This document shows, piece after piece, positions 9,591 through 59,093 of a DNA stretch of 64,000 nucleotides. A model generated the notes under the pieces. That model made no database searches and was not told where the DNA came from. It saw only the letters and a program-made list of their open reading frames with translations. This DNA comes from Eledone cirrhosa (taxonomy: Eukaryota), in assembly GCA_964016885.1 (NCBI GenBank), contig OZ024763.1, positions 5,518,001-5,582,000 on the forward strand, in the 5' to 3' direction. A program made the translations under genes and the position numbers. Each line of letters starts with the position of its first letter. The stretch's first letter is position 1.

Positions 9591-9730
9591 CATGGTTGGT
9601 TCAATATTTCCCCTACCCAGGGTGGTATATGCCATGGCAGAGGACCGAATCATCTTTGGTCAACTCTCAGGTGTGTCCGAAAGATTCAAGACCCCTGTTT
9701 TAGCAACACTGGTAGCTGGATTGTTTTCAG
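9591..9730 (+). CDS. SLC7/CAT cationic amino-acid transporter exon A, copy 1 (coding or pseudo-exon)
   Basis: ttcAG|...|GT; encodes (S)MVGSIFPLPRVVYAMAEDRIIFGQLSGVSERFKTPVLATLVAGLFS(G), matching the CAT motif GSxFPxPRVIYAMAEDG...TPxxAT; 140 nt, phase 2 to 1. Confidence 0.85.
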
Positions 9731-9934
9731 GTCATTCCATTTCTTTTGTTCCTTTAGGGCCATATCTGTCTGTCTGTCTGTCCGACTATTTGTTTGTCTG
9801 CTTAGATGTCCATCTGTTTGTCTCTCAGTCTATCTGATTAGCTATCTGTCTGTCTGTCTGTCTGTGTGGTTGGCTGCCTGTCTGCCTGCCTCTTTACACC
9901 ACTACAACCTTTCTCTGTGATCTTGTGGCTCTAA

Positions 9935-10050
9935 GTTCAGCACAGCATCTCTCTACTCGTCACGGTCCTTCGTCATCTCCACCATGAGCTTCAATGATCT
10001 GAGGTCATTTCTCACCACCTCCGCCCATGTTGTTCGTGGTTTACCCCCCC
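9935..10050 (-). mobile_element. RTE LINE 3'-terminal fragment
   Basis: GKPRTTWAEVVRNDLRSLKLMVEMTKDRDE(W)RDAV matches the RTE GRPRKTW...DRxxWR motif. Confidence 0.82.
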
Positions 10051-10058
10051 CCCCCATT

Positions 10059-10455
10059 CCCTGTAACATTGTGATCCCAACTTTAATACAGTTCCCCCCT
10101 TCTCTGTAACATTGTGATGCCAACGTTAATACAGTCCCCCCCCTTCTCTGTAACCTTGTGACCCCAACTTTAATACAACCCCCTTCTCTGTAACCTTGTG
10201 ACCCCAACTTTAATACAGCCCCCTTCTTTGTAACCTTGTGACCCCAACTTTAATACAACCCCCTTCTCTGTAACCTTGTGACCCCAACTTTAATACAGCC
10301 CCCTTCTCTGTAACCTTGTGACCCCAACTTTAATACAGCCCCCTTCTCTGTAACCTTGTGACCCCAACTTTAATACAATCCCCCCTTCTCTGTAACCTTG
10401 TGACCCCAACTTTAATACAGCCCCCTTCTCTGTAACCTTGTGACCCAACTTAATA
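10059..10455 (+). repeat. 40-bp minisatellite, ~10 copies, in the intron between exons A and B
   Basis: Unit CCCCTTCTCTGTAACCTTGTGACCCCAACTTTAATACAGC. Confidence 0.95.
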
Positions 10456-10504
10456 TCAAACTTTCTCTCTTTGTTCTACCTCACCCAAAACACCATCAAT
10501 GTAG

Positions 10505-10604
10505 GTTTGACAGCTCTCATGTTTGATCTCACTGAACTGGTGAATATGATGTCTATAGGAACCCTTCTAGCCTACACATTTGTGGCCAAGTGTGTCATCT
10601 TACG
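10505..10604 (+). CDS. SLC7/CAT exon B, copy 1
   Basis: tgtAG|...|GTGAGT; (G)LTALMFDLTELVNMMSIGTLLAYTFVAKCVIL(R), matching CAT FDLxxLVDxMSIGTLLAY; 100 nt, phase 1 to 2; missing from the ORF track. Confidence 0.88.
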
Positions 10605-11358
10605 GTGAGTATATCTATATATGTATATAGGTATATATGTATGTATGGTCTCATATATATATATATACATACATATACATATATCATCATCGTCCTCATC
10701 ATTTTTGTGTCTGTTTTTCCACGCTTGCATGGGTTAGATGGGTACTTTTAAGCACAGCATCTCTCTACTCGTCACATTCGTACATCATTTATTCTCCGAG
10801 AGAGTAAACTAACAAGAAAATGGAACTTTAGCATCATCTGAATCATCAGCTTCCTACAATACTTTACATTTTTATCTATCTACTTATTTTGTCTCTTTTT
10901 CTCTCCTTCACTCTATCTATTTTTGTATTTTCCACTGTCGCCTCCCTTTCTTTTTGCCACTGTTGCTACTGTTACTTCCGCTTTCTTATCACCTACTGCA
11001 ATCACAGCAAGCAATCACAGACATTTAGTAATATAGAGATAGATTGGCTCTTAACGTCCTGTCCCACATGAAACCACATTAGCAAAATATTGCTTAAACA
11101 TATAAAACAACATTATTACTGTATCACATTAATAAATATTGAAGTTTTTACTTTTATACAACAAATTTTCGCAATGATCTGTACCCTAGTAAAGATGCTA
11201 TAAACATTTGAATTAACAAACCACATAAACCCCATTAGCAAGACATTCTTGAAAAGTAGAAAACAGTATTATGATAGCATGACATTAAATATTAAAGTCT
11301 TTATTCTATCACTGCAAATATTCACAATGATCTATCCACTAGTAAAGATAGTGTAAAC

Positions 11359-11695
11359 CAGAGGTTGTCAAACTGTTTGGGCCACTACCCCGCCCCCTCA
11401 CGGTCATGTAATACACTCAGCACGTCCCCAACCCTATTTACAGAGAGACTTACCTACACACAAATTGTAAATAATATATAATAAATGAAATCGTTAATTT
11501 ATATATAATAATATAATATAATATATACTATGTATAAATAGATATTATATATTTTATATTTTACTATATTTATATATAATATGTATCATTTGATATTTAA
11601 TATACTATTATATCATATCTACCGCCACTGTAGGCCCCAGCGTCCACTCAGACCTTCTCAATGTCCCCACTTAGTGCCCATTTTGAGAACCTCTG
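11359..11695. mobile_element. hAT-type MITE (also 27366-27702, 43391-43727, 58549-58885)
   Basis: TIRs CAGAGGTTGTCAAA / TTTGAGAACCTCTG; 8-bp TSD GTGTAAAC/CTGTAAAC; an upstream duplicate (~11130-11225) shows the empty site. Confidence 0.85.
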
Positions 11696-11834
11696 CTGTA
11701 AACATTCGAATTAACAAACCTCTTTATAGATATTTTCTGACTAAATCATTAGAGGAGGTGAAGATCTTGTTTTCTCTTGTTCATTATATTTTCTTGTTTC
11801 TTTGTGTCTCTTGTTTTGTTTTCTGGAGTTTTAG

Positions 11835-11903
11835 ATATAAAGTCAAGGCTTTCAAAGGTGAGGAAACTGAGATAAAACCAGAAGGTGATAATGGGGATTT
11901 CAA
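11835..11903 (+). CDS. SLC7/CAT exon C, copy 1
   Basis: Long polypyrimidine tract, tttAG|...|GTAAGT; completes the conserved LR|Y junction: (R)YKVKAFKGEETEIKPEGDNGDF; 69 nt, phase 2 to 2. Confidence 0.72.
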
Positions 11904-12089
11904 GTAAGTTGACAGATTTCTCAGATTTGTGGAATTGTTGTGGGATTTGGCAAGGTTTTTGTAGGATTTTTGTGGAATTTTTGTGGGATTTTTGTAAATC
12001 TTTCTGGATCTGCCTTGATTTTGTAGATTTTGTGGATCACAAAAATATTGTACAACTGTATAATAACAATAGACATACACATATTCTAA

Positions 12090-12206
12090 TAAATGCAATA
12101 CTTGTACTTAATTCAGTCTCCTTGCTTCCATCACTCATGAACACAGCCCCGAGGTACTTGAACTTCTCTTTCTGCTTCAGTGAAACTCCATTCACATGTA
12201 GAACAT
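12090..12206 (-). mobile_element. RTE LINE reverse-transcriptase fragment
   Basis: LHVNGVSLKQKEKFKYLGAVFMSDGSKETELSTSI contains the FKYLG motif. Confidence 0.8.
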
Positions 12207-13084
12207 TATGATTTTTTTTTTTTTTTTGGTGGGGGGAGAATGATTGAAATGCCAGACGGGTCCTAAAATATATAAAAGCCTTGGTGACCCCAGTATGGGT
12301 TAGTATGCCCTTCACTACTCTAATGTCCATGACGGTCTGATAGGGAAGGAGTAAATGCTATATACCCCAGCCTCATTCCCATGAAAAGCTGATTAAGGAA
12401 GCACCAATCCTCTCTGCCCCCCCCCCCCCCCCACACACACACACACACACTTTTTCCTTGACAGCTGATGAGTCTTTAATAAAAATTGAAACTAATCAGA
12501 TTGATCTTTTATTATTATTATTATCATTATCCAGAGCCATAATAAATCAAATGAAAAATATATATGTATATATAGAGAGAAAGAGCCATATACCTTAGAG
12601 GAAACATAGTATATTGTATATGTACTAAATATATATTTCAGATAGGAATATGTACTTACGGTGGAGTCATTAGAGAGACCTTATAGCACTATTTCATATT
12701 CTGTAGAGTGTGGTTGAAAATCAATCTATGTAATCGATCATCGAAGACAAACTATCAATTATAATTAAACCACAGGAGACTCAGAATTATCATCAGAGGT
12801 TATAGTCTCAGAATTCTAAGAGAAATATAGAATCAAAATACAATATACTTGCCAATATCCATAGAGACTGCTAACGTAACCACCATGTTGAAGACCACAT
12901 GGTGTCATCATCATCATTTTACATCTGCTTTTCCCTGCATTCTTTCCACTAGAGATAGGTGTGGAAATTATAGTCACCCCATCTCAACAAGAGATTTGGA
13001 GCTGTTATATACAAATGTAATGATTCAAAACATCAAATATGTTAGAATTTTGTGTTTCTTGATAAACAAGCTCAATATATATAA

Positions 13085-13290
13085 ATCATCATCATCATCA
13101 CCATTTTACGTCCGTTCTTCCACGCTAGCATGGGATAGATGGGTTGTCCTGTTGTGGGCAGTGTCCGGTCGGCTGACCATGCCTTGCTCATACGGGAACT
13201 GATTCTGGCTTGATTACTACAGCTGGATGCCCTTCAAACACCAACCTCATTTACAGTGAGTGTTGGTTGCTTTTTTTCCGTGGTGCCTAT
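13085..13290 (-). mobile_element. RTE-type 3' UTR / RTE-dependent SINE tail with (CAT)n end (related pieces at ~10683-10780 and ~12904-12940)
   Basis: (CAT)n followed by TTTTACGTCCGTTCTTCCACGCTAGCATGGG...CTACAGCTGGATGCCCTTC; the motif recurs three times per unit. Confidence 0.6.
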
Positions 13291-13309
13291 ACGTCATATA
13301 TATATATAT

Positions 13310-13614
13310 AGTGGCAGACTGGGTCTAAAAATATTGGTTCGCAGGAGATAAAGGGGACCCACCCACATATAGAATGCTATCATTTAATTTTAATAATGAA
13401 TAAATAACATTTTCAAAAAATACATCAGTGAAAACAAAACATTGCAATCAAATTTTTGCAGGAAAGAAATGTGTATTTTTTACTAATTATAGTGTATATA
13501 TACTGTACATATTACTGGTAGTATACAGCAAACCACTCGTGTTGGATGCCACTTGCACCGACACCTTCTGCAGCCGCAACCTGGTGCAGTCTGCGACTGA
13601 CCCAGGTTCTGCTG
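13310..13614. mobile_element. Probable DNA transposon end fragment
   Basis: Begins AGTGGCAGACTGGG directly after (TA)n, resembling a CAGTGGCGGACT-type terminus; no partner end in the window. Confidence 0.35.
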
Positions 13615-15480
13615 CATCATGGTTGTGTTGGTTCTGAGCCTCATTAGGTAATGCATTATTCGTTACTTCTATAGATGTACAATCATGCCCTATGTAACAT
13701 ATTTAAAGAGGTATTTGACACTTTTTACAGAAGGGCAAACTTCAACATTAATATGTGCACAATATTTCTTAAGCAAAAAGGCATAAAATGGAACAACATT
13801 CCTGTTATCTACTGTATGTCATCCAATTTACACTGCAGTTCCTGTCTTGCACCTCCTGTACTCTGGGTATCCATTTAGGTTCAATAATGTTTTCCTTCTG
13901 TAGGTTTTTGGATAGTTCTTTTGGAAAAATCCATTTTGTATAAATGGGGAAAAAGGGTTTCCAGAACCACATGGCCCGTGGATCATAAACTTTTAAACCT
14001 GCTCATGTAGTACTGGATCATCTTCCAATGCAGGTATTTCTGCTGACACGATTCTGTCAATGTCTTCTCTCTTTCTTATCTTGTCTTCATTTCTTAAGGC
14101 TCAGTGTTATCATCTGTTTAGATAATTCATTAAACCATTATACTCATCCACTCACAATTGGGCTTGATTGTTCCTCAAATATTGAAGCCTGCATCCCTCT
14201 ACTTTCATATAGGCATCCACTAAATACTGCTAAAATAATTTGCCTGCCCTATATATCGCACTAAATCCTCCTCTATATGCTATACAGTATATGTAATACT
14301 CCTGCATTGTCAGTCTATTGCAAAGACAGGTCCTGCATTCCTCTCCATGTCACTATGTCACCAAAATTCACCATTATGGGTCGGTCATGAGGTCCAAGTG
14401 GCATGAATTATGTGGTATTTTCTGAGGAGGATGGTCTTTAGGAAAGATGATAATATCTCTTTGTATAGGTGGTGTGCCCTCAATCCCCCACAAAACAACA
14501 GCTATCATTACTAGTTGGTAAATTATAGCAGCTCATATCTGATCCTCTTCTAAATCTTAATTCACAGTTCTGTACACAACAATTTTCTCTTCTGGCTCTT
14601 TGCTGTTTGATGCCATGCATTGTATTATACACTTCGACATATGGATTACATTCATGCAACACCTCTCTTATCATAGTCATTTTTTGTGGTGAGCAGTCAT
14701 TATTTGTTGGTACTAGGGCGGTGGATTGGCAGTATCGGTAGAGCGTCAGACACCATGCTTTGCAGCATACGGTTATGGCCCTTTACGTTCTGGGTTCAAA
14801 TCCCTCCAAGGTTGACTTAGTTTTCATCCTTATGAGGTCGATAGAATAAAGTATCAGTAATACACTGGAGTAATTGCTGGCCTTGTGCCAGAAACAATTA
14901 TTTGGTGGTACTTCCAATCTGTGCTACACAGCTTCATTCCCATCAATAATATATAACTGGCCATATTGTAGTGTATTTTCTGCAGGTTACAGAGGTGGGG
15001 TGTAGTGATATGTTTGACCCTGAATATGAAAGCTATACGGGCCTCTGCCGGGTGGTAAGGCAAGTTTAACACCAAATGAAGTGAAAGAAATGTAGTTTTA
15101 ATTGCAGATGTTTCTGTGAAATCAACTGCTTCCTGGTCCCTTTCAAAGAGATTTCTCAATCTCTCAGGGTATATTTGCAATGGAGGCAACACAACCTTTC
15201 CTTTATTACAACAGTTACAATTTTCATTTCTAAATCTCAAAGCTCCACAGTGATCACACGAAACATTCATATCACTAATATGAAATTCTTCTACATTTCC
15301 ATTAATATTAATTGCTGGGCAATTTCTCCTACGACGTTCATTATCCATTCTTCTCTGTCTGAATGTTTTCCATTCTAAGTCTATTTGCATGGATTAATTA
15401 TATTCTGTTGTTTATTATGTAATTAAATAGCTCTGTACAATACATAGAGAACTCTTCTTTTCTTTACCTTTTCTATGGAA
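13615..15480 (-). mobile_element. Helitron Rep fragment (N-terminal Zn finger to Rep), decayed
   Basis: Minus strand: MNVSCDHCGALRF..CNCCNKGKVVLPPL; GKLF*QYLVDAYMKVE..RLQYLRNNQ; IVSAEIP..MIHGPCG..NP..GYPEYRR; HINVEVC..VKSVKYLFKY. Confidence 0.93.
14715..14896 (+). mobile_element. tRNA-derived SINE inserted in the Helitron (also ~30717-30898, ~46742-46923)
   Basis: A box TGGCAGTATCGG, B box GGTTCAAATCC; 16-bp target-site duplication ATTATTTG(T/G)TGGTACT at 14699-14714 and 14897-14912. Confidence 0.88.
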
Positions 15481-17458
15481 ATACAAGCACAAACATATAT
15501 ATATATATATATGTATATACATAAACAAGACTGTTATTGCTCCAACCAGTCTATTTACCTTTGATAACTATCCTAAATATAAATACACCTATACCATATA
15601 TGTTTTTGATGCCGTGGTATAGCAGAGATAAGCAAGAAGAGAAAAGAAAATGAAAAGGAAAAAGAAGTAAGAAGTCGGGGGAGGGACAGACACTTCACCC
15701 CAGTCTAAGTGGTCCCTCAGCCGCAACCCGTGGAAGAAACGTAAAAGCGTTACCTCGGAGCAAGGCCAGAGACACCTGCTACAATAGTCGCCCCTCCTCA
15801 CGAGGCTCCTGCCGTCTTTCCTCCCGACTTTATGGAGGAAATCAGCAGTACGGGGACCAAGTATGGCAGAGGTCTCAGTTGAGTGGAAGAGGTGAGTCAG
15901 GCCTCAGTACTATCTTACTCGCCTCTGCATTGCGGGGTGTGGAGCCTAGGTTTGTGGCTGTAACGATATTTGAACTTTTATATGAAATTTCAGTTTTATA
16001 TTTTTCACATCTTAAAACTTAATCTTAGTCTTTTGCAGCTCATCTTGTTTCATCTCGCAGCACACGATGTGGGAACCAAGACATAAAAACTATTTCAAGG
16101 GATCGACATCTGTAAAAAGGTTGAAAAACGCTGCTCAATGTTCTTTGGTTTTTGTTCACCTTTAAATAATCATGTATAAACTATCGGGTGTTATCTTGCA
16201 GGGACTAGCTCCAATTGAGAGTTGTACCAATTCCCACTAAACTCGAAACTCCTGGACAATATATATATATCTTTATAAGTTCCTGTGTATTGTGTCGCTG
16301 TATAATGAAACATAAACATATACCATGCATATCAGTCAGGTTTGAACTCACTATATTTGGTGTTTTATAGATATAATTTGTTTGTTAAAATAATTGATTA
16401 AATAATAACTAAATAATATTAATTCTACAATCCTGGGTAGGGAATGAACTTATAACTTCATAATAGAAGCCACATATTTGAGCAGTCTTGCCAACTAAGC
16501 CACCAGGTTACTTACAGAACTTCATTCAAATATAAAGTATTTTAATTTAAATTTAAATTAAAATAAATAGATACTTATTTATATGATTGTCAATATAAAT
16601 GCCGCAGAACATACATGCACACATATATGAAAGCAAGCTTGTTTTGAAACCGCGATCGAAGTTTGAAACAAATTATGACTATATATCGCCAGACATAGTG
16701 AGTTCGAATCTTACTGACTAGTTGGTCATTGTCCCAGCCAACAGTTTAAATCGCCAACCGGTAGGTGATATCGACTAGGTTGAGAAAACTTGGTTCAGTA
16801 GCTCCAGTTATTGCTACGTTAGACATATTCAAGACTTATCGACCCCGAATGGTAGAAAGGTAAAGAACTGGAAAAAATACTGCAAAGAATTCTATCTGAT
16901 GTTCTAACAATTCTACCAAATTACCTTATATATATATATTTATATCTAGAGATAAGAAAAAAACAGGAAAAAAAAAAAAAGCATGAAACCCTATATGTAA
17001 CCCATGACCAGAATTGAACCCCAAACAAGGACTTCCACCATCTCTGGTATCTCACACCAGACCATCAGGAATGCTACAAAAATCTGCTGAATTTAATATT
17101 TATAAGCCTACTTTCAATATTAAAGTAATTAACATGTGGTGTTGTTCATGCCTTTCTTAATGTTATTGGTAAAAAATAAAGTACTCAAATATTTTTACTT
17201 ATGTAATTATAAATGTCGCAGAATACACACACACATATATATATGTGAAAATATTCAGGACCCCAACGGCTGTGCTAGTGCCGTTTCGACATTTATATAT
17301 ATATCTTTTAGTCCTAGGCTCTTTCAGTGCAGAAAGAATTCTCCAATGATCACAACCAGCTGATGGTGCCCAGTTGAAGCACTTTAGTCTAATTATAACC
17401 CCAACGATTACGATTAGCGGCGGCTTTTCCGAGTCTGTGCCATGTGAGGTTGACTGCC

Positions 17459-17500
<42 letters not shown>

Positions 17501-17954
17501 CATACATGCTAGAATCCCGGAGAACAATAGAAAAATGCTGAGTTCAGAGTTTAAAAAACAACAGAAAGAAGGGCATAAATAAATATATATCAGTGGTTTA
17601 AAACCTTCTCTGCACCATGCCCCACCTCAACATTTAAAATATGTTTATGTCCCCCTTTAATATAAAAACAATCCGAGTCTTGTGAAAGTGTTATTACTGC
17701 AATATAAAGTAGAAACCCTTTATTTAAACAAAGCTGCGATGCAGCGATGATCAAAGCAAACCCCAAAATGTAAACAAACTTCTCGTAGATGCTGCCAGAT
17801 ACACGATAGCATGTCTAGACGAAGTGTAACAGGAGGTTGGGTCGTATTATATCACTTTCAAATTGACCCCTATTATATTCAAATTGTTCCCCGTGAGGTG
17901 TGCACCCCACGTTGAGAATCCCTCTTAAATAAATATATGTGAGTGAGTTGCTAT

Positions 17955-18922
17955 GACTGCTATTTCTAGCAGGTTTACTGCTGTCCTGTAGACGCACAAG
18001 AAAAACCGGAAGTGCTAGACATTAAAAAACTTTGGCTTAAAATCAGGCAAAAGTTTTTAAACAATAGAAAATTTAATGTAAACAAACCAGGGTGTTTTTG
18101 CCAAGAAAGATAACTCTTGTCTTACTTAATGGCAAAAATCGAGACAAAAATGTTGTGTGTGTGTCTGTGTGTTATGTATACAAGATATAGACGCCATTTT
18201 GAAGCCCGTACGTGGTCGGTCGACTTACTCGAAATAGTAGTCAAAGAGAGGAGATTTTTTTTTCACCCGATACAAAAAGTAGGTTTATAAATATTAATTT
18301 TCACTATATTTTTAAGGTGGTCTCGTTGGCCGAGTGGTACGGTGCGTTGAGTCTGCTGAGATACTGGTCGTGGTCTCGATCCCGGCCAACGTCTACACAT
18401 AGGGGGTCTTATTAAACTTTTTCAGTTTTTATTTTATCTCTTAGTATAAAAACTGAAAAAGTTTAATAAGACCCCCTATGTGTAGACGTTGGCCGGAATC
18501 GAGACCCCGACCAGTATCTCAGCAGACTCAACGCACCGTACCACTCGGCCAACGAGACCACCTTAAAAATATAGTGAAAATTAATATTTATAAACCTACT
18601 TTTTGTATCGGGTGAAAAAAAATCTCCTCTCTTTGACTACTATTTCGAGTAAGTCGACCGACCACGTACGGGCTTCAAAATGGCGTCTATATCTTGTATA
18701 CATAACACACAGACACACACACAACATTTTTGTCTCGATTTTTGCCATTAAGTAAGACAAGAGTTATCTTTCTTGGCAAAAACACCCTGGTTTGTTTACA
18801 TTAAATTTTCTATTGTTTAAAAACTTTTGCCTGATTTTAAGCCAAAGTTTTTTAATGGCTGCCTCTTCCGGTTTTTCTTGTGCGTCTACAGGACAGCAGT
18901 AAACCTGCTAGAAATAGCAGTC
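17955..18922. repeat. Long palindrome, unit 2 copy
   Basis: Same structure as 2577-3544. Confidence 0.95.
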
Positions 18923-21900
18923 TTTGGCTACTATTTCGAGCAAGTCGACCGACAACGTAGGGGGGTTCCCATATCTTATATACATAACACACAGACACAC
19001 ACACATTTATGTGTTTTATTTAAAGTTTTTCAAAACTCCTCATCGGTTTATAGTTGATTCGAACTTACAATTGGCCATCTACAGTCTTCTTGTTGACGTC
19101 TATATCTAGTATAGTTATATATAACACACAGACACACACACATTTATGTGTTTTATTTAAAGCTTTTCAAAACTCCTCATCGGTTTATAGTTGATTCGAA
19201 CTTTCAATTGGCCATGTACAGTCTTCCTGTTGACGTCTATATCTAGTATATAAATACATAACACACACACATTTATGTGTTTTATTTGGTCGTCCTTGTG
19301 AGCAAGTCGACCGGTTACATATGGGTTCCATGTTACCTACACAAGTTCATATCTCATTGAACTAACGTTGATTTCAACTTCGAATATTTGAACATACAAT
19401 ATGTAGTTACAGATGCTTCATAAATACAACTCCTGTCATTGCGCCATTCCTATACAAAGGGTGTGTTTGTGTGAGAAAGGGAGATCCGTGTTTATATCTA
19501 GTATAGTTATGCATTACACAGACACACACACAAGTATGCCTTTGATTATATTAAGACATTTTCAGACTTTTTTTGTTAACAGTTTAATGTTTATTGGAAA
19601 CCACAACGTGATTGACAGTACTTCGAATATATTTGATCATACAGTATGTAGTTACTTCATAACTACAATACCTATATACATAGGAATGCGTGAAAACGTG
19701 TGTATGTGAGATAGTTTAAAAAGGGAAATTAGTGTTTATATCTAGTATAGTTACACATAACGCACAGACACACACACGAATGTGCTTTTTAATATATTAA
19801 GACACATTTTCAAACTTTCTTCTTAACAGTTTAGTGTTTATTCGATACCACAACGGGATTGGCAGTACTGCACTAATGTATCGTAAATTAAATTTGCCAT
19901 GCGTCATTCATATATATATAACAAAGGAGTTATGGTAAGGAACTAGATGGACCATAACGCCCCAGAGTACTCAATACTTAGGGTAATAGGAGATGTGTGT
20001 TTGTAGTAGGCTAAATATAAAGTCGGACATTTATTCACCATGCCTTCCTATTTCATATTGACAACGTATAATATTAATCGGGATAATATAGATTTTCTAC
20101 ACGAACATAATGTCATCTCTATAACTACGAATTGTGAATAAACTTGTAAATGTTAATCCATTATTCCAAAAGAAAGTGTAAATCTAAAGAGGAAGTGACT
20201 ATTTGGCTGCTTACAAGAAATATTGATTTCTACAATAGGCACAAAGCCAGCAATTTTTTGGGGAAGGGAAGTCGATTAAATCGATCCCAGTGCGTTACTT
20301 CAACTTTATTTTATGGACAGCTTAAAGATGAAAAGCAAAGCTAACCTCGGCGGGATTTGAACTCAGAATTTAAAGAGACGTAACTCCACGCCGCGAAGAC
20401 ACTAAGGGACGTAACTCTAAGACACTAAATACATCAGAAACTTTCAACAAAATCATAATGTAAACGTAAACCATTGAAAATATATATCTGCAGCATATGT
20501 ATGATTAAAATAGATATGAGCAAATAAATTGTGAATCATTAAACTCTACTTTTGTGGCTTTATTTATATCGTGAAATGTTGTCAGACATTAAATTGTGGC
20601 TATGATTGTCATTACATTAGAGTGTTTGATTCAAATCTTTTTGTGTGTGAGTGTTGTAGATTTGATGCTATGGAGGTCTGTTCAGCAATAATGAAACTTT
20701 AATCGTTTTTTTTTTTTTAAGAACATTAACTTATTTAAAAAAATTCTTTTTAGTTTATTCGTACCTCCTGAATATGGTTACTTTCGATACTGACTCCCTG
20801 CCTTGATTATTGGTTCTGGCATTGCTGTTGTGGGCTGCTTAAATTTAATCCATAAGATCACAAGAATCTAAAAATGAAATGTTGCATACAGACAGACGTT
20901 ACGTTTATCCTAGGTATTTTGACAAATGTCTCGATGTCCATTGTTTTGAAAAATAGTACAATAAAGAAATGCCATCATCTAGTAATCCTTGATAATAATC
21001 CAGTGTTGTTGCAGCCATGGTAAATGGTAAGAAAAAACAAAAATAAAAGACACATTCAGCAGTTAATGCAGTGAAAACAAACAATAAAAATATAATTACT
21101 AAATAAAAATAATTCCTTACTTTCATTCATTTGTTTTTGTTATCGTTTTTAAATATAATTAAAATTTGTTTAATAAGTTATTTTTCATTACAATTATATA
21201 CATATTATAATTATATGTCTATTATATTATATAGGAATCAGGTTTATCAATTTACGAGAACGTCGCATCAAGTTCAAATCTTTCTCCCACACAATACTTA
21301 GGTATGGCAGATTTGAAGTTAGTAGAGATTATTGCAGGTAGTCAATGTAGGTTCAAATAAACCCTAGAGCTATGAATAACAAAAGCAAGTTATAATTTAT
21401 CAAAGTTCCAGTGGGATGAAAGACAAGGTCGACCCCTTTGTTGCGAGACGAACAGAGACGGGAAAGCCATGAAGGCCACCACGTCAATTTCGCTTCGAAA
21501 CAGAAAGTAGGTTTATATATAATAATATGTAGTCGGTTTTCAAAAGCGCCTTGGTGGCGTAGTGGAAAGTATAAGAGATGGTGGGAAACTTGGCCGGGGG
21601 TTTAAGCTTGGTCCACAACTACATTTAGAGGATGTTATTAATTGTTAATATTTTTTTTATCTTATGAGACAAAAAATTAAAATGTTCAGTGTAGATCTTA
21701 CCCGAGATTGAACTCCAGACCAGGATCTCCACCATCTCTGACACCACTTGGCTACCGAGACAACTTCAAATACATACTGACAATTAATATTTATAAACCT
21801 ACTTTCTATTTCAAAGCAAAAATTACGTGGTGATGTTCATGGCATTCTCCGTCTAATTCATATTACAAAAGGGGTCAACATTGGGTTTTAATTATCTGGG

Positions 21901-22075
21901 GCTTTGATAAAACATAGCTCGATTCAATTTGTCATCTTTTAAGGGTTGATTTCCTTGATTTCACAACAATCTGATCTGCCGTGCCCCTAAATATATACGT
22001 GTGTGTTGTAGAATTGATGCTACAGTGATGTGCTCAGCAAATATTTCTCCACAATTCTGTCATCCCACAATCATT

Positions 22076-22137
<62 letters not shown>

Positions 22138-24584: not shown

Positions 24585-24724
24585 CATGGTTGGTTCAATA
24601 TTTCCCCTACCCAGGGTGGTATATGCCATGGCAGAGGACCGAATCATTTTTGGTCAACTCTCAAGTGTGTCCGAAAGATTCAAGACCCCTGTTTTAGCAA
24701 CACTGGTAGCTGGATTGTTTTCAG
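24585..24724 (+). CDS. SLC7/CAT exon A, copy 2
   Basis: As copy 1, with QLSS instead of QLSG; splice sites intact. Confidence 0.82.
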
Positions 24725-38074: not shown

Positions 38075-38175
<101 letters not shown>

Positions 38176-42483: not shown

Positions 42484-42532
42484 TCAAACTTTCTCTCTTT
42501 GTTCTACCTCACCCAAAACACCATCAATGTAG

Positions 42533-44448: not shown

Positions 44449-44479
<31 letters not shown>

Positions 44480-47507: not shown

Positions 47508-49476
47508 ATACAAGCACAAACATATATATATATATACATAAACAAGACTGTTATTGCTCCAACCAGTCTATTTACCTTTGATAACTATCCTAAATATAAA
47601 TACACCTATACCATATATGTTTTTGATGCCGTGGTATAGCAGAGATAAGCAAGAAGAGAAAAGAAAATGAAAAGGAAAAAGAAGTAAGAAGTCGGGGAAG
47701 GGACAGACACTTCACCCCAGTCTAAGTGGTCCCTCAGCCGCAACCCGTGGAAGAAACGTAAAAGCGTTACCTCAGAGCAAGGCCAGAGACACCTGCTACA
47801 ATAGTCACCCCTCCTCACGAGGCTCCTGCCGTCTTTCCTCCCGACTTTATGAAGGAAATCAGCAGTACGGGGACCAAGTATGGCAGAGGTCTCAGTTGAG
47901 TGGAAGAGGTGAGTCAGGCCTCAGTACTATCTTACTCTCCTCTGCATTGCGGGGTGTGGAGCCTAGGTTTGTGGCTGTAGCGATATTTGAACTTTTATAT
48001 GAAATTTCAGTTTTATATTTTTCACATCTTAAAACTTAATCTTAGTCTTTTGCAGCTCATCTTGTTTCATCTCGCAGCACACGATGTGGGAACCAAGACA
48101 TAAAAACTATTTCAAGGGATCGACATCTGTAAAAAGGTTGAAAAACGCTGCTCAATGTTCTTTTGTTTTTGTTCACCTTTAAATAATCATGTATAAACTA
48201 TCGGGTGTTATCTTGCAGGGACTAGTTCCAATTGAGAGTTGTACCAATTCCCACTAAACTCAAAACTCCTGGACAATATATATATATCTTTATAAGTTCC
48301 TGTGTATTGTGTCGCTGTATAATGAAAGATAAACATATACCATGCATATCAGTCAGGTTTGAACTCACTATATTTGGTGTTTTATAGATATAATTTGTTT
48401 GTTAAAATAATTGATTAAATAATAACTAAATAATATTAATTCTACAATCCTGGGTAGGGAATGAACTTATAACTTCATAATAGAAGCCACATATTTGAGC
48501 AGTCTTGCCAACTAAGCCACCAGGTTACTTACAGAACTTCATTCAAATATAAAGTATTTTAATTTAAATTTAAATTAAAATAAATAGATACTTATTTATA
48601 TGATTGTCAATATAAATGCCGCAGAACATACATGCACACATATATGAAAGCAAGCTTGTTTTGAAACCGCAATCGAAGTTTTAAACAAATTATGATTATA
48701 TATCGCCAGACATAGTGAGTTCGAATCTTACTGACTAGTTGGTCATTGTCCCAGCCAACAGTTTAAATCGCCAACTGGTAGGTGATATCGACTAGGTTGA
48801 GAAAACTTGGTTAAGTAGCTCCAGTTATTGCTACGTTAGACATATTCAAGACTTATCGACCCCGAATGGTAGAAAGGTAAAGAACTGGAAAAAATACTGC
48901 AAAGAATTCTATCTGATGTTCTAACAATTCTACCAAATTACCTTATATATATATATTTATATCTAGAGATAAGAAAAAAACAGGAAAAAAAAAAAAAAGC
49001 ATGAAACCCTATATGTAACCCATGACCAGAATTGAACCCCAAACAAGGACCTCCACCATCTCTGGTATCTCACACCAGACCATCAGGAATGCTACAAAAA
49101 TCTGCTGAATTTAATATTTATAAGCCTACTTTCAATATTAAAGTAATTAACATGTGGTGTTGTTCATGCCTTTCTTAATGTTATTGGTAAAAATTAAAGT
49201 ACTCAAATATCTTTACTTATGTAATTATAAATGTCGCAGAATACACACACATATATATATGTGAAAATATTCAGGACCCCAACGGCTGTGCTAGTGCCGT
49301 TTCGACATTTATATATATATATCTTTTAGTCCTAGGCGCTTTCAGTGCAGAAAGAATTCTCCAATGATCACAACCAGCTGATGGTGCCCAGTTGAAGCAC
49401 TTTAGTCTAATTATAACCCCAACGATTACGATTAGCGGCGGCTTTTCCGAGTCTGTGCCATGTGAGGTTGACTGCC

Positions 49477-49532
<56 letters not shown>

Positions 49533-49986
49533 CATACATGCTAGAATCCCGGAGAACAATAGAAAAATGCTGAGTTCAGAGTTTAAAAAACAACAGAAAG
49601 AAGGGCATAAATAAATATATATCAGTGGTTTAAAACCTTCTCTGCACCATGCCCCACCTCAACATTTAAAATATGTTTATGTCCCCCTTTAATATAAAAA
49701 CAATCCGAGTCTTGTGAAAGTGTTATTACTGCAATATAAAGTAGAAACCCTTTATTTAAACAAAGCTGCGATGCAGCGATGATCAAAGCAAACCCCAAAA
49801 TGTAAACAAACTTCTCGTAGATGCTGCCAGATACACGATAGCATGTCTAGACGAAGTGTAACAGGAGGTTGGGTCGTATTATATCACTTTCAAATTGACC
49901 CCTATTATATTCAAATTGTTCCCCGTGAGGTGTGCACCCCACGTTGAGAATCCCTCTTAAATAAATATATGTGAGTGAGTTGCTAT

Positions 49987-50944
49987 GACTGCTATTTCTA
50001 GCAGGTTTACTGCTGTCCTGTAGACGCACAAGAAAAACCGGAAGTGGTAGACATTAAAAAACTTTGGCTTAAAATCAGGCAAAAGTTTTTAAACAATAGA
50101 AAATTTAATGTAAACAAACCAGGGTGTTTTTGCCAAGAAAGATAACTCTTGTCTTACTTAATGGCAAAAATCGAGACAAAAATTTTGTGTGTGTTATGTA
50201 TACAAGATATAGACGCCATTTTGAAGCCCGTACGTGGTCGGTCGACTTACTCGAAATAGTAGTCAAAGAGAGGAGATTTTTTTTTCACCCGATACAAAAA
50301 GTAGGTTTATAAATATTAATTTTCACTATATTTTTAAGGTGGTCTCGTTGGCCGAGTGGTACGGTGCGTTGAGTCTGCTGAGATACTGGTCGGGGTCTCG
50401 ATCCCGGCCAACGTCTACACATAGGGGGTCTTATTAAACTTTTTCAGTTTTTATTTTATCTCTTAGTATAAAAACTGAAAAAGTTTAATAAGACCCCCTA
50501 TGTGTAGACGTTGGCCGGGATCGAGACCCCGACCAGTATCTCAGCAGACTCAACGCACCGTACCACTCGGCCAACGAGACCACCTTAAAAATGTAGTGAA
50601 AATTAATATTTATAAACCTACTTTTTGTATCGGGTGAAAAAAAATCTCCTCTCTTTGACTACTATTTCGAGTAAGTCGACCGACCACGTACGGGCTTCAA
50701 AATGGCGTCTATATCTTGTATACATAACACACAGACACACACACAACATTTTTGTCTCGATTTTTGCCATTAAGTAAGACAAGAGTTATCTTTCTTGGCA
50801 AAAACACCCTGGTTTGTTTACATTAAATTTTCTATTGTTTAAAAACTTTTGCCTGATTTTAAGCCAAAGTTTTTTAATGGCTGCCTCTTCCGGTTTTTCT
50901 TGTGCGTCTACAGGACAGCAGTAAACCTGCTAGAAATAGCAGTC
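49987..50944. repeat. Long palindrome, unit 4 copy
   Basis: Same structure; ~10-bp deletion in the GT-rich part of the left arm near 50185. Confidence 0.95.
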
Positions 50945-53900
50945 TTTGGCTACTATTTCGAGCAAGTCGACCGACAACGTAGGGGGGTTCCCATATCTTA
51001 TATACATAACACACAGACACACACACATTTATGTGTTTTATTTAAAGTTTTTCAAAACTCCTCATCGGTTTATAGTTGATTCGAACTTACAATTGGCCAT
51101 CTACAGTCTTCTTGTTGACGTCTATATCTAGTATAGTTATATATAACACACAGACACACACACATTTATGTGTTTTATTTAAAGCTTTTCAAAACTCCTC
51201 ATCGGTTTATAGTTGATTCGAACTTTCAATTGGCCATGTACAGTCTTCCTGTTGACGTCTATATCTAGTATATAAATACATAACACACACACATTTATGT
51301 GTTTTATTTGGTCGTCCTTGTGAGCAAGTCGACCGGTTACATATGGGTTCCATGTTACCTACACAAGTTCATATCTCATTGAACTAACGTTGATTTCAAC
51401 TTCGAATATTTGAACATACAATATGTAGTTACAGATGCTTCATAAATACAACTCCTGTCATTGCGCCATTCCTATACAAAGGGTGTGTTTGTGTGAGAAA
51501 GGGAGATCCGTGTTTATATCTAGTATAGTTATGCATTACACAGACACACACACAAGTATGCCTTTGATTATATTAAGACATTTTCAGACTTTTTTTTGTT
51601 AACAGTTTAATGTTTATTGGAAACCACAACGTGATTGACAGTACTTCGAATATATTTGATCATACAGTATGTAGTTACTTCATAACTACAATACCTATAT
51701 ACATAGGAATGCGTGAAAACGTGTGTATGTGAGATAGTTTAAAGAGGGAAATTAGTGTTTATATCTAGTATAGTTACACATAACGCACAGACACACACAC
51801 GAATGTGCTTTTTAATATATTAAGACACATTTTCAAACTTTCTTCTTAACAGTTTAGTGTTTATTCGATGCCACAACGGGATTGGCAGTACTGCACTAAT
51901 GTATCGTAAATTAAATTTGCCATGCGTCATTCATATATATATAACAAAGGAGTTATGGTAAGGAACTAGATGGACCATAACGCCCCAGAGTACTCAATAC
52001 TTAGGGTAATAGGAGATGTGTGTTTGTAGTAGGCTAAATATAAAGTCGGACATTTATTCACCATGCCTTCCTATTTCATATTGACAACGTATAATATTAA
52101 TCAGGATAATATAGATTTTCTACACGAACATAATGTCATCTCTATAACTACGAATTGTGAATAAACTTGTAAATGTTAATCCATTATTCCAAAAGAAAGT
52201 GTAAATCTAAAGAGGAAGTGACTATTTGGCTGCTTACAAGAAATATTGATTTCTACAATAGGCACAAAGCCAGCAATTTTTGGGGGAAGGGAAGTCGATT
52301 AAATCGATCCCAGTGCGTTACTGGTACTTTATTTTATGGACAGCTTAAAGATGAAAAGCAAAGCTAACCTCGGCGGGATTTGAACTCAGAATTTAAAGAG
52401 ACGTAACTCCACGCCGCGAAGACACTAAGGGACGTAACTCTAAGACACTAAATACATCAGAAACTTTCAACAAAATCATAATGTAAACGTAAACCATTGA
52501 AAATATATATCTGCAGCATATGTATGATTAAAATAGATATGAGCAAATAAATTGTGAATCATTAAACTCTACTTTTGTGGCTTTATTTATATCGTGAAAT
52601 GTTGTCAGACATTAAATTGTGGCTATGATTGTCATTACATTAGAGTGTTTGATTCAAATCTTTTTGTGTGTGAGTGTTGTAGATTTGATGCTATGGAGGT
52701 CTGTTCAGCAATAATGAAACTTTAATCGTTTTTTTTTTTTTTAAGAACATTAACTTATTTAAAAAAATTCTTTTTAGTTTATTCGTACCTCCTGAATATG
52801 GTTACTTTCGATACTGACTCCCTGCCTTGATTATTGGTTCTGGCATTGCTGTTGTGGGCTGCTTAAATTTAATCCATAAGATCACAAGAATCTAAAAATG
52901 AAATGTTGCATACAGACAGACGTTACGTTTATCCTAGGTATTTTGACAAATGTCTCGATGTCCATTGTTTTGAAAAATAGTACAATAAAGAAATGCCATC
53001 ATCTAGTAATCCTTGATAATAATCCAGTGTTGTTGCAGCCATGGTAAATGGTAAGAAAAAACAAAAATAAAAGACACATTCAGCAGTTAATGCAGTGAAA
53101 ACAAACAATAAAAATATAATTACTAAATAAAAATAATTCCTTACTTTCATTCATTTGTTTTTGTTATCGTTTTTAAATATAATTAAAATTTGTTTAATAA
53201 GTTATTTTTCATTACAATTATATACATATTATAATTATATGTCTATTATATTATATAGGAATCAGGTTTATCAATTTACGAGAACGTCGCATCAAGTTCA
53301 AATCTTTCTCCCACACAATACTTAGGTATGGCAGATTTGAAGTTAGTAGAGATTATTGCAGATAGTCAATGTAGGTTCAAATAAACCCTAGAGCTATGAA
53401 TAACAAAAGCAAGTTATAATTTATCAAAGTTCCAGTGGGATGAAAGACAAGGTCGACCCCTTTGTTGCGAGACGAACAGAGACGGGAAAGCCATGAAGGC
53501 CACCACGTCAATTTCGCTTCGAAACAGAAAGTAGGTTTATATATAATAATATGTAATCTGTTTTTAAAAGCGCCTTGGTGGCGTAGTGGAAAGTATAAGA
53601 GATGGTGGGAAACTTGGCCGGGGGTTTAAGCTTGGTCCACAACTACATTTAGAGGATGTTACTAATTAATATTTTTTTTATCTTATGAGACAAACAATTA
53701 AAATGTTCAGTGTAGATCTTACCCGAGATTGAACTCCAGACCAGGATCTCCACCGTCTCTGACACCACTTGGCTACCGAGACAACTTCAAATACATACTG
53801 ACAATTAATATTTATAAACCTACTTTCTATTTCAAAGCAAAAATTACGTGGTGATGTTCATGGCATTCTCCGTCTAATTCATACTACAAAAGGGGTCAAC

Positions 53901-54096
53901 ATTGGGTTTTAATTATCTGGGGCTTTGATAAAACATAGCTCGATTCAATTTGTCATCTTTTAAGGGTTGATTTCCTTGATTTCACAACAATCTGATCTGC
54001 CGTGCCCCTAAATATATACGTGTGTGTTGTAGAATTGATGCTACAGTGATGTGCTCAGCAAATATTTCTCCACAATTCTGTCATCCCACAATCATT

Positions 54097-54185
<89 letters not shown>

Positions 54186-56720
54186 GTGTGTGTGTGTACA
54201 CATACGTGAGTAAGTGTGTGTCTGTATGATTTAAACGTACAACAACGCTATATACATCATATCTCTGTTAACAATTAAATAATTAAATAAAAGTAATTCT
54301 ACAATCCCAGCTAAAGATGGAAACACACACTACACATTATAGCAATAACCACGACATAACAGTTTCTTGTTAAATATAGCCTATTGCAATTGTTGGTAGC
54401 GCTTGAAACCCTGTCACTATGTCTCACTGCTGAATCATGAAGGACAGGTCCTAGGAAAATGTTGGGGAGGGGAAAAAAAGAGTAATATATCCAGGTTTGG
54501 TTCATCTCTCCGATTTACACGGTATATAAATGATGTTTACCACTGTCGAGTACTTACCAGTCTTACTAAACACCGTCAGTTAGCTTTGTGCAGCGGTTAA
54601 AGAAAGTTGTGTTATTTTTTTGCCCTTCACATACAGTTTTTGTTCAACAGATAACAATACACACGAGAAAGAATCAAACAGAATGTAAGTCTTTGAAAAT
54701 AAAAATGTTATTACATTAGAACAAAATCCTAAATTATTATAGAACGTGGAATGAACGAAGCAACAAAATGAATTAATTTGAGACAAGCTGGTGATTATAA
54801 GGACAAATGACTTCATCTTCAACAGTATACAATTGAAATTAGAAATTGATTGAAATGGAACCTTTACAGAGACATCTAGCAGTAATATTTGGAATATAAG
54901 ACAAACCAAATTTTGAAGAAAAATGTCTGATGTGTCAATATATCAAATTTAACCTGTTTACAACAAAAGTGTCAACACCAGTAAATAAAGCGGTGTCTTA
55001 ATCAAACGTAGACACACGGACGAATTACGAATAATATAAACTTATTGATATATTTTGGGGCAATATGAGGACAGCATGACCTTCCCCGAATATAACAATA
55101 TCTCTTTCAACACACGATTTCATATTTTTAAAAAAACCTTCAAAATAAATAACGCCGTTAATCTATATTTAGTTTTATAAAAAGTAAACAATATTTGAAG
55201 AAAAACAAACAGTATTAAATGATTTGAAACAAACAGACGAAAGCAAAGACAATCACAGCCATGTTTTAATGTGTGACGATAGCAGTAAACAAGGCAATGT
55301 CTTAATTAAACGTAGACACACACAAGTTACGAATATTCTAAACTTAATGTTATATTTTGGGAGGGTCATGTTGTCCTAATATTGCGAAAAAATAGGACCT
55401 GCGAAGATTGGAAAGAAATGAAGCCTCCATACTTCGATGGATGTGTAATAGCAATATACGCAAATGACAAAGCATTAATGAAATACGCGATAAATTAGAC
55501 ATAAGAGGGATCAGATGTTGTGTGCAGGAGAGGAGATTGTGTTGGTAAGGATATGTGATGCGTATAAAGGATGCCAACTGTATAAAAAGATGCAGAGTAC
55601 TCAAAGTTGGTGGTAGCCATGGAGTAGGCAGGCCTAGGAAAACTTGGGATGAGGTAATAAGAGCTGACCTTTCACAATTACACCTCACAGGACCGTCACC
55701 TCTGGTGTTGTGAAGTATTACAGAAGACCCGCCCTCTATACTTAGCTGGCAACACCATTCCCTACCATCTCTCCTCTCATAAACCTCTTTTGTAACTACG
55801 TCCCCAATTTCCCAAAGCATATTCTCTACCCCTCCCAAGTTTCCCAACTCCTCTATAAAGTGATCCCCCACCCCTGGAGTCACACCAAAAGAGCCCAGCC
55901 CACACTGTAGTGGTCATATAGGTGTCATGACAAAAGTGAGCGTCCAGTCTACACTGTAAAATGGTCATGTAGGTGAGCAGCAAAACATACCCAGTACACA
56001 CTGTAAAGTGGTCGTGTAGGCGAGCAGTAAAAAACACCCAGTACATACTGTAAAGTGGTCATGTAGGTGAGCAGCAAAACATACCCAGTACACACTGTAA
56101 AGTGGTCGTGTAGTTGAGCAGTAAAACATACCCAGTACACACTGTAAAGTGGTCGTGTAGACGAGCATCAAAACATACCCAGTACACACTGTAAAGTGGT
56201 CGTGTAGACGAGCATCAAAACATACCCAGTACATACTGTAAAGTGGTCGTGTAGACGAGCATCAAAACATACCCAGTACACACTGTAAAGTGGTCGTGTA
56301 GGCGAGCAGCAAAACACACCCAGTACACACTGTAAAGTGGTCGTGTAGGCGAGCAACAAAACATACCCAGTCTACACTGTAAAGTGGTCGTGTAGGCGAG
56401 CAGCAAAACACACCCAGTACACACTGTAAAGTGGTCATGTAGGTGAGCAGTAAAAAACACCCAGTACATACTGTAAAGTGGAACACGGAACTTTTCTATG
56501 GATGTCACTGGATTACTCGCCATCAGATTACATTGAGTTCTATCTACGGTACGGACCCTACCACCAGGGGTAGACCACATAAAAAAATAAATATATCTAT
56601 ATATATATCTATATATCTATATATATATACTATATATCGATTCGTTTAATACATCATACAAGGGGTATATAGTATGTCAACCGTTGTATTACTCTATATA
56701 TCCACCCCACTATATTTCAG

Positions 56721-56860
56721 CATGGTTGGTTCAATATTTCCCCTACCCAGGGTGGTATATGCCATGGCAGAGGACCGAATCATCTTTGGTCAACTCTCAG
56801 GTGTGTCCGAAAGATTCAAGACCCCTGTTTTAGCAACACTGGTAGCTGGATTGTTTTCAG
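56721..56860 (+). CDS. SLC7/CAT exon A, copy 4
   Basis: Same variant as copy 1 (QLSG). Confidence 0.84.
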
Positions 56861-57196
56861 GTCATTCCATTTCTTTTGTTCCTTTAGGGCCATATCTGTC
56901 TGTCTGTCTGTCTGTCCGACTATTTGTTTGTCTGCTTAGATGTCCATCTGTTTGTCTATCACTCTATCTGATTAGCTATCTGTCTGTCTGTCTGTCTGTG
57001 TGGTTGGCTGCCTGTCTGCCTGCCTCTTTACACCACTACAACCTTTCTCTGTGATCTTGTGGCTCTAAGTTCAGCACAGCATCTCTCTACTCGTCACGGT
57101 CCTTCGTCATCTCCACCATGAGCTTCAATGATCTCAGGTCATTTCTCACCACCTCCGCCCATGTTGTTCGTGGTTTACCCCCCCCCCCCCCCCATT

Positions 57197-57642
57197 CCCT
57201 GTAACATTGTGATCCCAACTTTAATACAGCCCCCCCCCTTCTCTGTAACATTGTGATCCCAACTTTAATACAGTCCCCCCCTTCTCTGTAACCTTGTGAC
57301 CCCAACTTTAATACAGCGCCCCCCCCCTTCTCTGTAACATTGTGATGCCAACTTTAATACAGTCCCCCCCCTTCTCTGTAACCTTGTGACCCCAACTTTA
57401 ATACAACCCCCTTCTCTGTAACATTGTGACCCCAACTTTAATACAGCCACCTTCTCTGTAACCTTGTGACCCCAACTTTAATACAGCCCCCTTCTTTGTA
57501 ACCTTGTGACCCCAACTTTAATACAACCCCCTTCTCTGTAACATTGTGACACCAACTTTAATACAACCCCCTTCTCTGTAACCTTGTGACCCCAACTTTA
57601 ATACAACCCCCTTCTCTGTAACCTTGTGACCCAACTTAATAT
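57197..57642 (+). repeat. 40-bp minisatellite, ~11 copies
   Basis: Same unit; short allele like unit 1. Confidence 0.95.
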
Positions 57643-57690
57643 CAAACTTTCTCTCTTTGTTCTACCTCACCCAAAACACCATCAATGTAG

Positions 57691-57790
57691 GTTTGACAGC
57701 TCTCATGTTTGATCTCACTGAACTGGTGAATATGATGTCTATAGGAACCCTTCTAGCCTACACATTTGTGGCCAAGTGTGTCATCTTGCG
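57691..57790 (+). CDS. SLC7/CAT exon B, copy 4
   Basis: Ends CVILR like copy 1; AG/GTGAGT intact. Confidence 0.86.
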
Positions 57791-59024
57791 GTGAGTATAT
57801 CTATATATGTATATAGGTATATATGTATGTATGTATGGTCTCATATATATATATATACATACATATACATATATCATCATCGTCCTCGTCATTTTTGTGT
57901 CTGTTTTTCCACGCTTGCATGGGTTAGATGGGTACTTTTAAGCACAGCATCTCTCTACTCGTCACATTCGTACATCATTTATTCTCCGAGAGAGTAAACT
58001 AACAAGAAAATGGAACTTTAGCATCATCTGAATCATCAGCTTCCTACAATACTTTACATTTTTATCTATCTACTTATTTTGTCTCTTTTTCTCTCCTTCA
58101 CTCTATCTATTTTTGTATTTTCCACTGTCGCCTCCCTTTCTTTTTGCCACTGTTACTACTGTTACTTCCGCTTTCTTATCACCTACTGCAATCACAGCAA
58201 GCAATCACAGACATTTAGTAATATAGAGATAGATTGGCTCTTAACGTCCTGTCCCACATGAAACCACATTAGCAAAATATTGCTTAAACATATAAAACAA
58301 CATTATTACTGTATCACATTAATAAATATTGAAGTTTTTACTTTTATACTACACATTTTTGCAATGATCTGTACCCTAGTAAAGATGCTATAAACATTTG
58401 AATTAACAAACCACATAAACCCCATTAGCAAGACATTCTTGAAAAGTAGAAAACAGTATTATGATAGCATGACATTAAATATTAAAGTCTTTATTCTATC
58501 ACTGCAAATATTCACAGTGATCTATCCACTAGTAAAGATAGTGTAAACCAGAGGTTGTCAAACTGTTTGGGCCACTACCCCGCCCCCTCACGGTCATGTA
58601 ATACACTCAGCACGTCCCCAACCATATTTACAGAGAGACTTACCTACACACAAATTGTAAATAATATATAATAAATGAAATCGTTAATTTATATATAATA
58701 ATATAATATAATATATACTATGTATAAATAGATATTATATATTTTATATTTTACTATATTTATATATAATATGTATCATTTGATATTTAATATACTATTA
58801 TATCATATCTACCGCCACTGTAGGCCCCAGCGTCCACTCAGACCTTCTCAATGTCCCCACTTAATGCCCATTTTGAGAACATCTGCTCTAAACATTCGAA
58901 TTAACAAACCTCTTTATAGATATTTTCTGACTCAATCATTAGAGGAGGTGAAGATCTTGTTCTCTCTTGTTCATTATATTTTCTTGTTTCTTTGTGTCTC
59001 TTGTTTTGTTTTCTGGAGTTTTAG

Positions 59025-59093
59025 ATATAAAGTCAAGGCTTTCAAAGGTGAGGAAACTGACATAAAACCAGAAGGTGATAATGGGGATTTCAA
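59025..59093 (+). CDS. SLC7/CAT exon C, copy 4
   Basis: AG/GTAAGT intact; YKVKAFKGEETDIKPEGDNGDF. Confidence 0.72.

Follow-up and report, generated by a model that had tools for sequence, protein, structure and literature searches.

Four tandem copies of three cationic amino acid transporter exons in Eledone cirrhosa: probably a recent, unselected segmental duplication next to a broken Helitron

The exon array and its repeat units

Contig OZ024763.1 of the Eledone cirrhosa genome assembly (GCA_964016885.1) carries, between positions 5,518,001 and 5,582,000 of its forward strand, three internal exons of a cationic amino acid transporter (CAT, SLC7) gene in four tandem copies. This stretch of 64,000 nucleotides, referred to below as the window and numbered from its first letter, had previously been described in a first-pass annotation made from the sequence alone. 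Re-reading of the window confirms the twelve exons reported there, namely four copies each of exons A, B and C (Table 1), which are free of stops and are preceded by AG and followed by GT in all twelve cases. Each A-B-C triplet comprises 309 nt and runs from phase 2 to phase 2; exon C of one copy joins exon A of the next in frame, as had been claimed, and the four triplets placed head to tail read through 411 codons with 0 stops. The introns measure 0.8-1.8 kb between A and B, 1.2 kb between B and C, and 12.7 kb from C to the next A. The amino acid differences reported among the copies, G/S in exon A, I/T in exon B and E/D in exon C, are real and are accompanied by two synonymous changes.

The triplets lie within a much larger repeat, which the first-pass annotation had not noted. 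The array at 158-60514 consists of four direct 16-kb copies with unique DNA on both sides, and the exons make up about 2% of each block. Outside tandem repeats the units diverge pairwise by 0.56-1.33%, with the lowest value between units 2 and 3; as tandem blocks longer than 1 kb and more than 90% identical, they have the properties of a segmental duplication. Private substitutions number 71, 11, 19 and 44 in units 1, 2, 3 and 4, respectively, and transitions stand to transversions as 104:89. When the alleles of single-nucleotide polymorphisms (SNPs) are written for units 1 to 4 in turn, the pattern is 0111 at 0-6 kb, 0011 at 6-9 and 12-13 kb, and 0110 at 9.6-11 kb along the unit. Such mosaic tracts fit no single tree and therefore suggest that the first duplication was followed by unequal exchange or conversion.

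The first-pass annotation had found no other CAT exons in the window. In agreement with this, none appeared among the matches listed by tblastn with 14 CAT proteins, and none was found when a cephalopod CAT profile was run against the 3487 six-frame peptides of the window; that profile scored exon C itself only at E 3.3-5.5, so that a short variable exon could escape detection. Homologous tandem copies are present, and host exons are not seen within the window.

Table 1. Positions of the main features in the window
Feature	Position	Strand	Remarks
Unique left flank	1-157		
Repeat unit 1	158-15523	+	body 158-13373, junction 13374-15523; self-BLAST
Repeat unit 2	15524-31527	+	junction part 29376-31527; self-BLAST
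Repeat unit 3	31528-47540	+	junction part 45406-47540; self-BLAST
Repeat unit 4	47541-60514	+	no junction part; ends in 8-nt microhomology with Helitron arm
CAT exon A, four copies	9591-9730, 24585-24724, 40693-40832, 56721-56860	+	140 nt
Exon A, copies 2 and 3	24585-24724, 40693-40832		G27S
CAT exon B, four copies	10505-10604, 26508-26607, 42533-42632, 57691-57790	+	100 nt
Exon B, copies 2 and 3	26508-26607, 42533-42632		I to T, two residues before conserved Arg
CAT exon C, four copies	11835-11903, 27842-27910, 43867-43935, 59025-59093	+	69 nt
Inverted arm 1 (selector-like)	13615-14279	-	665 nt; 1712 nt behind exon C1
Inverted arm 2	29617-30281	-	665 nt; 1707 nt behind exon C2
Inverted arm 3	45649-46313	-	665 nt; 1714 nt behind exon C3
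Single complementary arm (dock-like)	60507-61171	+	1414 nt behind exon C4; middle of same Helitron
Decayed 5' half of Helitron RepHel frame	13615-15400, upper end approximate	-	junction 1 (also 2 and 3); translation
Helitron continuation with PIF1 helicase remnant	61172-61795	+	unique right flank

The transporter segment and its relatives

By sequence similarity, the CAT (SLC7) identity already proposed in the first-pass annotation is far above chance. In a protein search, exon A is 91% identical to an Octopus sinensis CAT (XP_029651496.1, hereafter P0002) at E 1.5e-16, and P0002 in turn matches mouse CAT1 at E 2e-184. Identity to P0002 extends over 42 of 46 residues in exon A and 33 of 34 in exon B; in exon C it reaches 8-9 of 22 at best, to P0002 and O. 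bimaculoides XP_014769092.1 (P0004). These two proteins are also nearest in a tree of the A-B-C peptide, a placement without firm support, and further octopod CAT/SLC7 relatives are XP_036369485.1, XP_036369481.1 and the Argonauta proteins GAB1602137.1 and GAB1602283.1. The window peptide is an exact match to none of the octopod CATs found. At least three CAT paralogs occur in O. sinensis and at least two each in O. bimaculoides and Argonauta, within each species on contigs that share a single length. Judged by these comparisons, the window DNA contains internal exons of one octopod CAT/SLC7 paralog among several. The octopod paralogs share with the window exons the EDR and AKC motifs and, as implied by gaps in gene models, the exon borders, whereas the window has lost a codon at the end of transmembrane helix (TM) 10 and holds only three internal exons, four times over. 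Several CAT paralogs are seen in octopods, and two squid or cuttlefish-type matches show one.

The frame symmetry of the cassettes can be traced to the parent gene. Among automated octopus gene models, P0032 lacks exactly A+B, in frame, and P0033 compared with P0007 lacks exactly the C-equivalent; the A+B and C blocks of the parent gene are therefore frame-symmetric. The symmetry of the cassettes is inherited from the intron phases of that gene, and it was therefore rejected as a mark of design. P0032 and a second O. vulgaris model, P0031, which fuses two adjacent CAT genes, both look unreliable.

At the protein level, exon A encodes the end of TM8, the TM8-TM9 loop and TM9, corresponding by alignment to residues 344-389 of mouse CAT1 and including the equivalents of Ser347 and Glu360. 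Alignment and a structure model of P0002 assign TM10 to exon B and the start of intracellular loop 5 to the 23 codons of exon C; the model is of low confidence (mean predicted local distance difference test, pLDDT, of 62) and was used for helix limits only. Intracellular loop 5 is described as unresolved in the CAT1 structures of PMC13022406 and PMC12855903. All four copies retain MVGS, which holds the TM8 serine (S347 in mouse), and AEDR, which holds the E-D pair that follows TM8. The role of this serine in cation recognition and that of the E-D pair are described in PMC12855903 and PMC5803215.

In the EDR of exon A and the VAKC of exon B, the first-pass annotation had seen marks of decay, a view that does not survive comparison with other cephalopods. 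Every one of the 11 cephalopod CAT proteins covering this segment has EDR or EDK, and K-C is present in each of the 12 exon B motifs from cephalopods; it is only outside this group that Gly after ED predominates, in 48 of 61 motifs. Because both motifs are present across cephalopod CATs, they are lineage features and were discarded as signs of decay. The combination of EDR or EDK with a Lys in TM10 (AKC or SKC) characterizes 11 cephalopod CATs (P0002-P0008, P0031, P0033, P0034 and P0037) and is absent from the other 298 of the 309 proteins compared. It is possibly a cephalopod-specific change near the gate. It is of value as a record of how cephalopod CATs differ from those of other animals, with EDR or EDK instead of DG and K-C instead of a small or hydrophobic residue.

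Exon B departs from its homologs by being one codon short near its 3' end in all four copies, a feature absent from the first-pass annotation. Between the Tyr of GTLLAY and the terminal Arg of TM10, the spacing is 9 residues in each window copy; among 296 homolog motifs it is 10 in 285 and 9 in not a single one. These motifs come from 293 of the 309 proteins; the Arg is missing from ten of them, and one was wrongly scored as 8. An otherwise invariant length of the TM10 end, a feature of CATs, is thus altered in the window. The loss is common to all four copies and therefore preceded the duplication, and inspection of the exon flanks by eye revealed no alternative splice site that would return three bases to exon B. 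Two residues before the same Arg, 286 of 286 motifs have I, L, V, M or C, compared with Thr in copies 2 and 3.

Protein searches returned neither a product of the window paralog nor a C-to-A junction, and no protein of E. cirrhosa was among their matches; as the comparison set (309 proteins, 11 of cephalopod type) includes none from this species, the negative is no evidence on expression. A scan of metagenomes gave 0 matches to the cephalopod-type exon A motif. Literature searches on octopus or cephalopod CATs and on octopus Helitron tandem duplication returned only unrelated papers and no description of the locus.

A broken Helitron at the unit junctions

Units 1-3 each end in a 2.1-kb junction piece, composed of 240 nt of other DNA followed by the decayed 5' half of a Helitron in inverted orientation, and unit 4 leads directly into this Helitron, at its middle and in plus-strand orientation. 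At this latter break there is an 8-nt microhomology, CATATAGA, with one mismatch in unit 4. Of the three junction types, one shows microhomology; for the remaining two, the window does not contain the whole of the ancestral partners. In the right flank, the PIF1 remnant is recognized by Pfam (PF21530, E 3.7e-15, 61277-61792). The 5' half at the junctions has no Pfam match and presumably represents the N-terminal and Rep portion of the element, whose motifs were recognized in translation. The Helitron frame extends beyond each break, in the upstream direction in the junction copy and in the downstream direction in the right-flank copy, so both Helitron breaks are derived. Two exon-like AG/GT stretches at about 14987-15170 were considered as extra CAT exons and rejected, being antisense of this frame.

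An inverted downstream segment between direct copies, together with microhomology at a junction, is what a template-switch origin would leave behind. The arrangement resembles the DUP-TRP/INV-DUP rearrangements described in PMC11293582, in which direct copies are likewise separated by an inverted segment from downstream and one junction shows microhomology. It differs from them in that no kilobase-long inverted low-copy repeat pair was found at the switch point, in that only part of the inverted piece recurs, in one further place, and in the later expansion to four copies. By eye, a 13-nt inverted match can also be seen between the left flank (124-137) and the end of the junction (15473-15485), each at most about 40 nt from a unit start; it is possibly a trace of template switching.

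One consequence of the broken element is a set of inverted repeats behind the exons. The three arms of units 1-3 are each 98% complementary to the single downstream arm, a geometry of several selectors and one dock. Arms and dock differ at 12-14 of 665 positions (1.8-2.1%), which is no fewer than between units, and the pairing is thus not conserved beyond the neutral background. The predicted arm/dock duplex has an energy of about -1190 kcal/mol, compared with -130 to -145 for self-folding. Cephalopods are known for heavy ADAR editing. A circle formed by A-B-C would measure 309 nt and has 0 stops in one frame in four of four copies.

Origin of the array and alternatives

The most plausible account is a recent tandem segmental duplication in which the CAT exons are unselected passengers and not a working cassette system, with a probability of roughly 0.7. 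In the first step, replication with template switching would have copied the block, run backwards through the Helitron and returned to the block start; exit by microhomology into the Helitron would then have left two copies in the manner of a DUP-TRP/INV-DUP event. Unequal exchange may subsequently have raised the copy number to four. We infer this order of events from the derived array. Selection would not have removed the array if the host paralog, already without its TM10 codon, was redundant among octopod CATs. Should the host gene be transcribed, default splicing is likely to include several cassettes. The protein would then gain as many as three additional TM9-TM10 hairpins, together with half-TM8 pieces, and is predicted to be non-functional.

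Variation among the copies is consistent with this account. Five segregating sites fall in the exons, compared with an expectation of 5.5 based on the unmasked sites of the units (193 of 10,886), and the changes comprise three replacements and two silent substitutions on 232:74 sites. The exons therefore vary at the non-coding rate, as fits neutrality, in a comparison of little power. Without selection, copies free of stops, frameshifts and splice-site damage are expected with P of about 0.37, so that the intactness of the exons is not above chance. Two replacements in A+B have P 0.04 if the ratio of nonsynonymous to synonymous rates (dN/dS) is assumed to be 0.1.

Several points pull the other way. 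The selection tests rest on five sites and have little power. Only 3 of 80 A+B positions hold a residue absent from all 11 cephalopod segments, so the gene would have been constrained until recently, and Ser347, the E-D pair and all splice sites are kept, so any decay would be very recent. Both breakpoints of the array fall in introns, as they would in a duplication within a living gene. A helix may tolerate the loss of one residue from its cytoplasmic end, and with P0002 and P0004 as its nearest relatives, the paralog may be a working ortholog in E. cirrhosa.

The first-pass annotation had offered two readings, an array of exon cassettes convergent with vertebrate SLC7A2 or an amplified fragment. 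The fragment is better supported, but not through the supposed decay marks. As the annotation had stated, exon A does correspond to the region alternated in SLC7A2: by alignment to mouse CAT1 it covers the same TM8-TM9 loop in which PMC5803215 places the Arg369/Glu affinity switch of CAT-2A/2B, and exons 7 and 8 of SLC7A2 (CAT-2B and CAT-2A) are mutually exclusive according to PMC12714141. However, one exon is duplicated in SLC7A2, whereas a 16-kb block of three exons is repeated in E. cirrhosa. The SLC7A2 alternatives differ at the affinity residue, whereas all four window copies carry the Glu of EDR and differ instead at a variable loop site (G/S) and in loop 5 (E/D). Moreover, including several copies keeps the frame in the window array, unlike in SLC7A2. 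The borders of exon A presumably coincide with those of the SLC7A2 alternative exons. Given the size of the repeated block, the same Glu four times over, an inherited frame symmetry and no sign of constraint, convergence with SLC7A2 is not upheld.

Among the other explanations, an assembly artefact, with haplotypes placed in tandem, is unlikely to account for all or part of the four-copy array. The divergence of the units does fall within the allelic range of marine molluscs, and junction 2 has no private SNP. Against an artefact, private substitutions occur in every unit, with an excess of transitions, and units 2-4 share one type over 0-6 kb, so that units 2 and 3 are not allelic first copies; haplotype mixing could presumably at most turn three copies into four. 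Among the eight sequencing runs listed, three share at least half of the words examined, but these derive from one sample, possibly the source of the assembly, and are not independent support; no RNA run was listed as sharing them. Helitrons are known for gene capture and for tandem arrays, and Rep and PIF1 remnants do lie at the unit joints and in the right flank. That a Helitron captured the CAT exons and amplified them head to tail by rolling-circle replication is nevertheless very unlikely, as RepHel sequence is present without the termini that should enclose the exons. By inspection of either strand, the unit ends lack a 5' TC and a 3' CTRR with its hairpin, the CAT exons lie outside the Helitron frame, and the element is broken at both derived junctions and full of stops. 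Least credible is an expressed, functional transporter with two to four repeats of the TM8c-TM9-TM10 segment. Such a protein would draw on the in-frame joining of all four triplets and on the even number of helices added by A+B (366-383 and 386-412 of the P0002 model), which would keep the downstream topology, and a lamprey CAT model (P0038) has an internal repeat of the same region. Yet the APC fold has one TM8-TM10 set and each repeat begins in mid-TM8, the copies show no constraint, and the protein searches described above, which contained no E. cirrhosa match, yielded no C-to-A junction protein. The C-to-A join also places Asn at the position of Ser343, where S343A and S343V are reported in PMC12855903 and PMC13022406 to impair mouse CAT1. 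As for P0038 (Petromyzon marinus, 939 aa), its 214-residue near-identical tandem repeat over TM8-TM10 may be either a real intragenic duplication or an assembly artefact.

A further possibility, itself unlikely, is that the array lies inside a working CAT gene and that RNA pairing between arm and dock loops out later cassettes, which would make it a newly arisen selector/dock system whose units are cassettes of three exons. With arm 1 paired, the mRNA would again contain a single cassette; pairing of arm 3 could circularize A4-B4-C4. The 98% complementarity of three arms to one dock, the strength of their duplex and the stop-free circle are in keeping with such a system. Its geometry is the one proposed by Ivanov and Pervouchine for the birth of mutually exclusive exons (PMC6071210), an article that also describes docks downstream in 14-3-3zeta, Mhc and MRP1, and back-splicing is promoted by inverted intronic repeats according to PMC11263353. 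As in the selector/dock systems of PMC6071210 (Dscam, 14-3-3zeta, Mhc and MRP1), intronic arms of like sequence each lie behind a duplicate and have one complement downstream. Those systems use short conserved elements, whereas the window arms are 665-nt transposon remnants behind each of copies 1-3, at distances of 14-46 kb, in three-exon units and in a layout known from sequence geometry alone. Beyond this, the differences between arms and dock give no sign of kept pairing. A downstream dock would remove later cassettes only, and the candidates for skipping earlier ones are self-folding palindromes alone. Arm 1 is 46 kb from the dock and C1 is 12.7 kb from A2, so splicing would likely come first. 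The copies are identical at the affinity residue, every copy has the TM10 deletion, and no host exons are seen in the window. The bolder proposal, in which one rearrangement both multiplied the cassette and supplied its splicing control, with arms that compete for the dock and either rescue a normal-length mRNA or release a circle, is very doubtful. If true, it would represent a selector/dock system at birth, built from a transposon, acting on multi-exon cassettes and affecting the TM8-TM9 segment, as the alternative exons of SLC7A2 do in vertebrates. Were the locus transcribed, its layout of three arms and one dock would permit a direct test of the competing-RNA-structure origin put forward in PMC6071210.

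Under the preferred reading of a recent unselected duplication, the locus is likely a young structural variant of an ordinary kind, in an octopus gene family with redundant members, and it is mainly useful as a clean example of template-switch duplication.

Other repeats are found within and beside the units. Each unit contains a near-perfect palindrome of 968 nt (2577-3544, 17955-18922, 33958-34924 and 49987-50944) with arms of about 477 nt, a loop of 12-13 nt and 2-11 mismatches between arms. Differences between units are larger in the left arms (3-13) than in the right arms (1-3), and by eye the arms appear to hold the tRNA-like head of a short interspersed nuclear element. Unit 1 alone has a 213-nt insertion that includes a perfect hairpin of about 130 nt (about 6798-6928), set into a (TA)n tract. 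Just upstream of exon B lies a 40-nt minisatellite (10052-10455, 25043-26458, 41153-42483 and 57190-57641) with 10, 34, 33 and 11 copies in units 1-4. A 47-nt minisatellite lies upstream of exon A, and a 43-nt pyrimidine-rich tandem repeat occupies 62956-63214 in the right flank.

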